A DNA stretch of 8,451 nt, taken from a virus. Taxonomy: Duplodnaviria > Heunggongvirae > Uroviricota > Caudoviricetes. The stretch lies in the IMG/VR virus record IMGVR_UViG_2548876857_000001, positions 1 to 8,451 of that record; one strand, written 5' to 3'. A program made the translations under genes and the position numbers. Below, one piece after another: positions 5,895 through 6,050 of the stretch (position 1 is its first letter; every line of letters starts with the position of its first letter). The notes beneath the pieces are model-generated. The model was given only the letters and a program-made list of their open reading frames with translations. It had not been told where the DNA came from and searched no databases.

Positions 5895-5969
5895 GGGTCA
5901 GTCGTATAAAGGTCATTACGGAAGGCTGTTAACCTTCTTATCGTGGTTCGAGTCCACGCTGTCCCGCCA
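5895..5969 (+). tRNA. tRNA-like gene, anticodon GTT (Asn) by manual fold; one T-T mismatch in the acceptor stem
   Basis: Manual cloverleaf: acceptor GGGTCAG / CTGTCCC (6 of 7 pairs), D-arm with GG, anticodon stem GAAGG/CCTTC with loop CTGTTAA, T-arm CGTGG-TTCGAGT-CCACG, discriminator G, encoded CCA. Confidence 0.55.
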
Positions 5970-5974
5970 AACAT

Positions 5975-6050
5975 GCTGGTTTAGCTCCAATGGTAGAGCA
6001 GTCGCCTTGTAAGCGAATGGGTAGCGGTTCAAGTCCGTTAACCAGCACCA
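5975..6050 (+). tRNA. tRNA gene, anticodon TGT (Thr) by manual fold
   Basis: 76 nt. Perfect 7-bp acceptor stem GCTGGTT/AACCAGC, D-stem GCTC/GAGC with GG in the loop, anticodon loop CTTGTAA, 5-nt variable loop, T-arm AGCGG-TTCAAGT-CCGTT, discriminator A, encoded CCA. Confidence 0.7.

Follow-up and report, generated by a model that had tools for sequence, protein, structure and literature searches.

A phage 21-type tRNA-Asn/tRNA-Thr cassette in the late leader of a lambdoid phage and its probable role as a supply of cleavage-resistant tRNAs

A pair of transfer RNA (tRNA) genes is found in the late transcript leader of several lambdoid phages. The curated genome of phage 21 annotates a tRNA-Asn and a tRNA-Thr, with the late promoter pR', the Q-binding elements, the transcription start and the terminator tR' around them; the Sf6 copies are annotated as 'similar to phage 21', and the genes are also annotated in SfI, BTP1, SPN9CC and others. 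The SfI paper, where tRNAscan-SE gave both genes with anticodons GUU and UGU, lists Sf6, ST64T, PS3 and phage 21 as further carriers, and its authors trace the pair back to the account of the late region of phage 21 published in 1991. Here the same element is described in a stretch of 8,451 nucleotides (nt) from a virus of the Caudoviricetes (IMG/VR record IMGVR_UViG_2548876857_000001, positions 1 to 8,451), referred to as the window. Its 156-nt tRNA block is 100% identical to that of phage 21 (AJ237660), and the tRNA copies of OL657228 (39591-39746) and Sf6 are identical to it as well; the element is thus an already known one, the phage 21-type late-leader tRNA cassette, and shares both position and sequence with the phage 21 and Sf6 copies. 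An earlier note on this DNA had remarked that phage tRNAs occur at such a position, as these annotations bear out. The account that we consider probable is that both genes yield functional phage tRNAs, the tRNA-Thr being a cleavage-resistant replacement and the tRNA-Asn most likely a second spare, with codon supply secondary at most.

The closest functional precedent comes from work on tRNA-cutting defence nucleases (tRNases), which are carried by P2 prophages and P4-like satellites. P2 Old and PARIS AriB, both Toprim tRNases, cut host tRNA-Thr(UGU) and, as a slower substrate of both, host tRNA-Asn(GUU), as described in papers from 2025-26. P2 Old, the classic lambda-excluding system, kills through cleavage of host tRNA-Thr(UGU). 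In its anticodon stem, nt 28-30 and 40-42 are paired CNG motifs, and each strand is cut 3' of the C; tRNA-Lys, tRNA-Asn and tRNA-Val are cleaved more slowly. AriB cuts ThrU between nucleotides 40 and 41, and is neutralised by T5 variants of three tRNAs acting together. Gifsy-1 encodes another tRNase, HepS, which lambda-type tail tips activate and which cuts tRNA-Thr isoacceptors, including UGU. The phage 21 tRNA-Thr (tRNA-Thr21; Govande et al., NAR 2025, PMC12445682) 'also protected against P2-OLD': it is uncut without ATP and nearly fully resistant at Site 1, which is credited to the alteration of CNG and to a shorter anticodon stem. In the same study the UGU anticodon was needed for rescue, since an anticodon change in the rescue tRNA-Thr abolished protection against Old. 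According to a preprint (10.64898/2026.07.10.737580), HK97, HK542 and Bas34 regain plating on OLD-expressing cells when the Thr(UGU) of HK446 is supplied.

The tRNA-Thr of the window is 100% identical to those of phage 21 and HK446. In host ThrU the anticodon stem ACUGA/UCAGU comprises 5 base pairs, with the motifs CUG/CAG and with U39; the window tRNA-Thr has UCG/CGA instead, G27:A43 left unpaired, a stem of 4 base pairs and G39, and both C28 and G42 are lost. It thus combines the features of the rescue tRNAs that resist P2 Old, namely the UGU anticodon, altered CNG motifs and a shortened stem, and G39 in place of the host U39 is found in all phage tRNA-Thr(UGU) examined. An anti-tRNase role of the window tRNA-Thr, a role that the earlier note had not considered, is supported through the experiments on the identical phage 21 and HK446 sequences, and the apparent defect G27:A43 is probably part of the resistance to Old. 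Judging from the layout, the Q-modified RNA polymerase would read through tR' into the tRNA genes at the onset of late transcription; host RNase P and the 3' trimming enzymes would then, as is general in E. coli tRNA biology, free mature tRNAs already bearing CCA, and the resistant tRNA-Thr(UGU) would replace ThrU, the only UGU tRNA-Thr of the host, so that ACA decoding goes on.

The tRNA-Asn, the invariant partner in the cassette, would likewise be a resistant spare, the second in the pair. Host tRNA-Asn has CGG/CCG and U39, and at the AriB site (pattern compared: U36-A-A-U39-C40, with N41 after the cut) it reads UAAUC before the cut and C after it; the window tRNA-Asn has AAG/CUU and C39, and reads UAACC and U. 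The C28:G42 pair is replaced as in the tRNA-Thr. Substitutions are therefore present both at the AriB site and at the Old CNG motifs, as would be expected of any unrelated tRNA-Asn. The pairing of Asn(GUU) with Thr(UGU) recurs in coliphages of unrelated lineages, namely P7 (L120 1425-1578), the N4-like phage VEc25 (L127 37-283) and T5 (L117); this recurrence, together with the loss of the motifs, makes a resistant-spare role of the tRNA-Asn plausible, though on weak evidence. The tRNAs assayed in both OLD reports and in the AriB report do not include the phage 21-type tRNA-Asn: PMC12445682 has a single mention of 'tRNAAsn', which concerns the host tRNA, and the OLD preprint has none of 'Asn'. 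An argument from chance level for PARIS, two of whose three or four targets are matched by the pair, was not relied on, being post hoc and confounded by the phage preference for tRNAs that read A-rich codons.

Several points weigh against this account. All the functional evidence is carried over from identical sequences and not from this locus, and the rescue assays relied on expression of tRNAs and not on phage 21 or HK446 from which the tRNA genes had been deleted. Rescue from Old toxicity was partial, with small colonies (PMC12445682). According to the preprint (10.64898/2026.07.10.737580), growth of phage lambda was restored by none of the tested tRNAs, a single tRNA gave no relief of OLD toxicity in recB-deficient cells, and HK446 also encodes a protein inhibitor, Oad2. 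A bypass of the B185 PARIS system requires tRNA-Lys(UUU), which the cassette lacks. As regards the tRNA-Asn, the loss of CNG and U39 is weakened as a signal by its low identity to the host gene, only 59%, and P7 has retained U39 in its tRNA-Asn and both CNG motifs in its tRNA-Thr. Finally, the cassette is dispensable, accessory and conditionally useful, because about half of the phages with a nearly identical Q lack it (42 of 90 loci with a tR' anchor).

That the two genes are real is agreed by ARAGORN and Rfam. ARAGORN finds exactly two tRNA genes in the whole window, both on the + strand, and Rfam family RF00005, with a gathering score of 29, matches the tRNA-Asn with 55.3 bits (E 4.5e-10) and the tRNA-Thr with 61.5 bits (E 9.2e-12); the minimum-free-energy fold is a cloverleaf for each. 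The earlier note had read two genes 5 nt apart with anticodons GTT (Asn) and TGT (Thr) and had named tRNA callers as the check; ARAGORN returns both loci with these anticodons (Table 1), and E. coli RefSeq genomes annotated by PGAP carry the same genes as tRNA-Asn and tRNA-Thr. The T-T mismatch reported there in the acceptor stem of the first gene is real too: U5898 stands opposite U5962, that is gene positions 4 and 68, which in standard numbering is pair 4:69 and not 4:68 because the variable loop has 4 nt. Two other non-canonical pairs had been missed, U13:U22 in the tRNA-Asn and the G27:A43 already mentioned in the tRNA-Thr. The anticodon stem and loop of the tRNA-Asn are GAAGG/CCUUC and CUGUUAA; the tRNA-Thr has the anticodon stem GUCGC/GCGAA and the acceptor stem GCUGGUU/AACCAGC.

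Table 1. Features of the tRNA cassette and of its surroundings in the window
Feature	Position	Strand	Basis or details
Q late-gene antiterminator, Sf6/phage 21 family	5313..5831	+	Pfam Phage_antitermQ, E 1.1e-25
pR' late promoter	5809..5838	+	TTGACA (5809-5814), 18-nt spacer, CATAAT (5833-5838)
Direct repeat ATTAGCCA/TTTAGCCA	5819-5834	+	overlaps the -10 hexamer; position of the phage 21 Q-binding elements
tR' intrinsic terminator	5847..5894	+	hairpin 5847-5885, U-tract 5884-5890, then AUUU
tRNA-Asn(GUU)	5895-5969	+	75 nt, CCA encoded; ARAGORN and Rfam RF00005
tRNA-Asn anticodon GTT	5928-5930	+	ARAGORN
Spacer AACAT between the tRNAs	5970-5974	+	5 nt, read from the sequence
tRNA-Thr(UGU)	5975-6050	+	76 nt, CCA encoded; ARAGORN and Rfam RF00005
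tRNA-Thr anticodon TGT	6008-6010	+	ARAGORN
Conserved late-leader segment (AACTGAGCCGTAGCCACTGGCTATCCTGAA...)	6052..6105	+	bounds the cassette slot on the right
Class II holin of the phage 21 type, at the head of the lysis cassette	6169..6384	+	Pfam Phage_holin_2_1 'Bacteriophage P21 holin S', E 8.6e-36
Endolysin, phage lysozyme family	6384..6881	+	Pfam Phage_lysozyme, E 9.7e-46
Rz spanin gene	6866..7345	+	Pfam Phage_lysis (Rz), E 8e-50
Embedded open reading frame (ORF), 61 amino acids, +1 frame within Rz	7098-7283	+	ORF list

The earlier note had taken the mismatch as a sign that the first gene may be a pseudo-tRNA or may have changed its amino-acid identity. In E. coli the identity elements for asparaginyl-tRNA synthetase are G34, U35, U36 and the discriminator G73; the tRNA-Asn keeps all four as well as the encoded CCA, and it has G3-C70 and not G3:U70, which excludes an alanine-like identity. 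For threonyl-tRNA synthetase the E. coli elements are G1-C72, C2-G71, G35 and U36, and they are all present in the acceptor stem and UGU anticodon of the tRNA-Thr. The pseudogene reading can point to the two genuine mismatches, U4:U69 and U13:U22, to the minimum-free-energy fold, which leaves position 4 unpaired, and to the plainly degenerate chimeric tRNAs found in the slot of the relatives L050, L065, L067, L009 and L063. However, across the 39 loci that have both tRNAs the tRNA-Asn has 4 variable sites, none at position 4 or 68, and a nucleotide diversity (pi) of 0.0034, compared with 0.020 for the tRNA-Thr, 0.057 for the pR'-tR' leader and about 0.15 for the flanking Q gene and downstream leader, the flank values being inflated by mosaicism. 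The tRNA-Asn is clearly the most constrained segment of the locus. It is identical in phages whose flanks diverge by up to 15%. Of the 48 tRNA-Asn matches in the loci collected by way of Q homologues, 41 have the window sequence, U:U mismatch included; three of the remaining seven are Asn/Gly chimeras. Identical copies are found in phage 21, Sf6, phage L, JLK-2012 and HK446, and, whereas relatives differ in the second member of the cassette, the tRNA-Asn stays constant, also where the second tRNA is replaced or damaged, as in phage L, JLK-2012 and E. albertii.

The closest relatives of the tRNA-Asn are those of T4-like and jumbo phages, which are 74-78% identical to it. They were considered as an explanation of U4:U69 and set aside, their acceptor stems being different and paired, so that they indicate a phage-specific lineage only. 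Pair 4:69 is weak in this lineage, because one jumbo-phage relative has U4:G69; the site tolerates weak pairing. Neither relaxed constraint, nor lost identity elements, nor failed calls are found for the tRNA-Asn, whose score lies well over the family threshold and which all callers and annotations give as Asn. A pseudogene or an altered identity is therefore very improbable, and the gene looks functional despite its mismatch, a worked example of a defective-looking phage tRNA that should not be dismissed as a pseudogene. In the tRNA-Thr, the polymorphisms shared by at least two loci are all structure-neutral, and a compensatory change of G5-C68 to U5-A68 occurs in L074, L086 and L097; the spacer has one variable site among relatives, AACAT or AATAT.

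The cassette is an ordinary sequence feature, with annotated copies in many phages and hundreds of E. coli prophages, and it is not bound to one type of late control region. Among 5426 complete E. coli genomes, 982 have a match to the region, and in 254 the match covers 80% or more of the query. In HK446 (NC_019714, L128) ARAGORN and Rfam find tRNAs at 621-695 and 701-776, identical to those of the window, while the RefSeq record annotates none; HK446, treated in the 2026 OLD preprint as having 'a single' Thr(UGU), thus carries the full Asn and Thr cassette. There it follows a lambda-type Q, pR', 6S RNA and tR', and the junction, TTTTTTATTT followed directly by GGGTCAG, is the same. Since junction and cassette are the same behind different Q/tR' regions, the cassette is, as far as the sequences tell, a self-contained module, found in combination with three or more types of Q/terminator. 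Taxonomic breadth was assessed by scanning the Q homologues of 32 species genomes: the cassette occurs only beside Q genes at least 85% identical to that of the window, in a Shimwellia genome, in Escherichia sp., in E. albertii and in a metagenome bin labelled Segatella, and the scan yielded no covariation for the tRNA-Asn. Contigs labelled as metagenome-assembled genomes of Segatella copri (L008) and Cellvibrionaceae (L004) share 85-98% identity with this Q region of an enterobacterial phage, and their odd taxon labels most likely reflect binning contamination.

A more specific form of the resistance account would make the Asn and Thr pair a dedicated mobile counter-measure against OLD-family Toprim tRNases, pluggable behind any Q/tR', in which the tRNA-Asn would be a resistant spare and no passenger, U4:U69 and G27:A43 would be adaptive by lowering nuclease recognition, and a low level of tR' read-through during lysogeny might protect the lysogen. 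We put this forward tentatively, as a possibility of rather less than even chance.

The conserved junction also bears on a different explanation, according to which the tRNAs would act mainly as RNase P signals that trim the qut/tR' leader or stabilise the lysis mRNA. In line with it, the tRNA-Asn begins 4 nt past the U-tract behind all three Q/tR' types, and in relatives without tRNAs the slot holds another highly structured RNA. Nevertheless, a processing signal would not need conserved anticodons, identity elements and an encoded CCA, and the loss of Old protection in the rescue tRNA-Thr with a changed anticodon indicates that decoding matters; this explanation has, in our judgement, a very small chance of being correct. 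Still less credible is that the tRNAs replace a host tRNA gene disrupted by prophage integration. The authors of the OLD preprint suggest that the HK446 tRNA may reflect the temperate lifestyle (10.64898/2026.07.10.737580), a suggestion that also counts against a role in resistance, and SfI integrates into thrW, a tRNA-Thr gene (SfI paper). However, thrW is the CGU isoacceptor, not UGU, the cassette tRNAs are only 59-66% identical to host genes, and the cassette is remote from int/attP: the phage 21 genome has attP at 27.5 kb, next to an icd gene fragment and not to a tRNA, and the tRNAs at 39.6 kb. Moreover, the same cassette is found across phages of different families and integration modules.

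Codon usage, to which the earlier note had looked for a rationale, does not provide one, as the ACA and Asn codon frequencies of late genes are the same with or without the tRNAs. Codons were counted in annotated genes of phage 21, of a near-identical E. coli prophage (TUM12368), of lambda and of the host, the lambda late genes being homologous to those of the tRNA-carrying phages. Per 1000 codons, ACA occurs 12.5 times in the late genes of phage 21, 10.0 times in those of the prophage and 10.0 times in those of tRNA-less lambda; ordinary host genes have 9.5, and ribosomal-protein and elongation-factor genes 3.5. The corresponding late-gene values are 25.8, 22.9 and 28.2 for ACG and 37.5, 33.9 and 36 for all Asn codons, with an AAC share of 0.54-0.60 in all three phage sets. 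The reading that the tRNAs serve mainly to raise the decoding of AAC/AAU and ACA (plus ACG/ACU), used in late structural genes beyond what the tRNA pool of the host is adapted to, can point to an excess over the ribosomal-protein and elongation-factor genes: about threefold for ACA (10-12.5 versus 3.5), about sixfold for ACG (23-26 versus 3.9) and about three- to fourfold for AAU (14-17 versus 4.7). E. coli has a single thrU gene, a fact that counts on the same side.

Yet tRNA-less lambda equals the carriers in its late-gene usage, this excess included. Compared with ordinary host genes, the ACA share of Thr codons in phage 21 late genes has an odds ratio of 0.88 (p 0.54), and no comparison gives an Asn codon signal; the four tRNA-Asn genes of the host likewise speak against supplementation. 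Since carriers and lambda are alike, codon supply cannot explain which phages carry the cassette. In the SfI paper ACA reaches 17.3% in the phage versus 7.1% in its host, in favour of a codon effect, and its authors likewise state that codon usage gives no reason for the tRNA-Asn. Host ThrU gives little or no protection against Old, so that there the sequence matters and not the dose. Supplementation as the main role is thus unlikely, and extra decoding capacity for late genes would be at most a secondary benefit. Codon usage is a poor explanation for tRNAs in temperate coliphages, and an arms race with tRNases is better supported.

The slot behind tR' has other occupants in related phages. 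In about half of those with a nearly identical Q it is filled by a lambda-type hairpin of about 80 nt (L035 3079-3160, L043 3078-3150, L060 3080-3160, L066 3079-3160), with a conserved basal stem of about 20 base pairs (GCACAACAGGTAAGAGCA...TGCTCTTATCGTTGTGC) and a hypervariable apex in at least six unrelated versions; its fold has z-scores of -2.9 to -4.0 and it matches no Rfam family. This could be a cargo slot or a small-RNA family. On the right, the slot is bordered by the AACTGAGCCGTAGCCACTGGCTATCCTGAA segment, which lies 3' of the tRNAs in the window, HK446 and L055, and also 3' of the hairpin in the tRNA-less L035, L036, L043 and L060.

Chimeric tRNAs are seen in the slot in L050, L065 and L067 (about 3082-3180), in L009, L052, L063 and L064, and in L119 (681-756). 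One type joins the 5' part of the tRNA-Asn to the 3' part of a tRNA-Gly in the T-loop (GGTTCGA); another consists of the first 26 nt of the phage tRNA-Thr and a 3' part that resembles host thrU and has a disrupted anticodon stem, and it is followed by an intact tRNA-Gly(UCC). It seems that recombination uses conserved tRNA segments as joints. The 2026 preprint lists Gly(UCC) itself among the Old targets (10.64898/2026.07.10.737580). In phage L (L118 681-752) the second tRNA is replaced by a tRNA-like gene of 72 nt, annotated as tRNA-Leu(TAA), which scores 42 bits in Rfam and has no ARAGORN call; its acceptor and D arms are as in the phage tRNA-Thr, and the anticodon arm is different. PS3 has the same replacement, judged by a similar match to the 156-nt block. 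At more distant Q loci tRNAs are absent or of another kind: Gly(UCC) and a tRNA-like gene with a 6-nt anticodon loop in Edwardsiella hoshinae (L030 3176-3333), and a tRNA with a CAU anticodon (Met) in Rosenbergiella (L024 1022-1099), beside Q homologues 60-68% identical to that of the window. It seems that tRNAs use the position behind Q as a general landing site.

The position given in the earlier note, right after tR' and before the holin gene, is confirmed by the layout Q, pR', tR', tRNAs and lysis genes. The Q of the window is 99-100% identical to that of many viral contigs; in Sf6 gene 59 is labelled 'similar to phage 21 Q'. The promoter has 11/12 matches in the scan and aligns with the annotated pR' of phage 21 and Sf6, placing the transcription start by homology at about 5845. 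The repeat ATTAGCCA/TTTAGCCA is that of Sf6, and phage 21 differs (ATTGAGCA/AATGAGCA): two types of promoter and Q-binding repeat are seen when the window is compared with Sf6, phage 21 and phage L, each paired with one of two Q alleles, and the repeat difference that goes with the Sf6-type allele suggests a distinct specificity of Q for DNA.

The tR' hairpin has a folding energy of -20.2 kcal/mol (z = -5.4; none of 200 shuffles folds as well), followed by a U-tract of 7 U, and it is annotated as a terminator in the records of phage 21 (PMID 1704887) and Sf6. Phage 21, Sf6, phage L and the window have nearly the same sequence between the transcription start and the end of the tRNA-Thr; the window and phage 21 agree fully over the part that runs from TAAGC (5846) up to the tRNA, and the sole difference in Sf6 and phage L over the tR' leader is one T fewer in the U-tract. 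This layout makes plausible the earlier claim that the tRNAs would be expressed with the late genes only when Q antiterminates. In the paper on the BTP1 lysogen transcriptome the two tRNA genes are excepted from the list of genes above 100 transcripts per million. This suggests high read counts of the tRNA genes in the lysogen, a signal that could come from spontaneous induction or from leakage of the terminator; with the strong conservation of the gene, it would be indirect evidence for a mature, Asn-charged tRNA.

Downstream, the phage 21 homologue of the holin gene is annotated as S21 pinholin/antiholin and that of the endolysin as a signal-anchor-release (SAR) endolysin. The true start of Rz is probably a few codons 3' of the start in the ORF list; the embedded ORF is probably Rz1, the o-spanin of phage 21 being nested inside the i-spanin in the same manner. 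Farther upstream, on the + strand, Rfam matches a c4-a1b1 target RNA (2059-2111), isrK (2072-2148, 77 bits) and a C4 antisense RNA (2175-2258, 65 bits). Directly 3' of these lie two ORFs of the antirepressor type, 2311-2991 and 3060-3788, with the domains ORF6N and P22_AR_C, and pRha and ANT/KilAC, respectively. The whole looks like a c4-ant module in the style of P1/P7 immI inside a lambdoid nin region, and the same module is present in L063.

Among the known tRNA-carrying systems, the cluster ileZ-argN-argO of Shiga toxin (Stx) phages of the 933W type lies between Q/tR' and stx and provides Ile (CAU-type) and Arg (UCU/UCG) tRNAs for rare codons. It thus occupies the same slot, 3' of Q, pR' and tR' and ahead of late genes; the window differs in having only Asn(GUU) and Thr(UGU), followed by holin, endolysin and Rz with no stx, and does not belong to that cluster. 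A related report on ileX is cited in the SfI paper. In P7 (AF503408 71657-71807) the same two anticodons occur in the same order and closely spaced, and the tRNA-Thr is 78% identical to that of the window; the P7 tRNA-Asn, however, belongs to another lineage (55% identical), and the pair lies 3' of the C1-controlled Op(ban), stated in the record to control the tRNAs, and not in a Q-dependent late leader. T5 has the same Thr and Asn isoacceptors, with substitutions at the nuclease sites of the anticodon stem and loss of C28/G42, but it is a virulent phage with an array of about two dozen tRNA genes, and the identity to the window tRNAs is only 56-61%.

Much closer are Sf6, SfI, BTP1, SPN9CC, Kapi1 and Bas106, which are P22-like or other lambdoid phages, and HK446 of the Hendrixvirinae. 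In all of them the cassette lies right after tR', as it does here, with a tRNA-Thr identical or 98.7% identical to that of the window and a tRNA-Asn that is identical wherever compared, whereas the virion modules and lysis cassettes differ. The nearest counterpart is phage 21, which shares the same 156 nt, the tR' leader, the 5-nt spacer, the P21-type holin, the endolysin and Rz; the window departs from it in its Q gene and Q-binding repeat, which are of the Sf6 type, and in its nin region, a mosaic with Stx-phage-like sequence.

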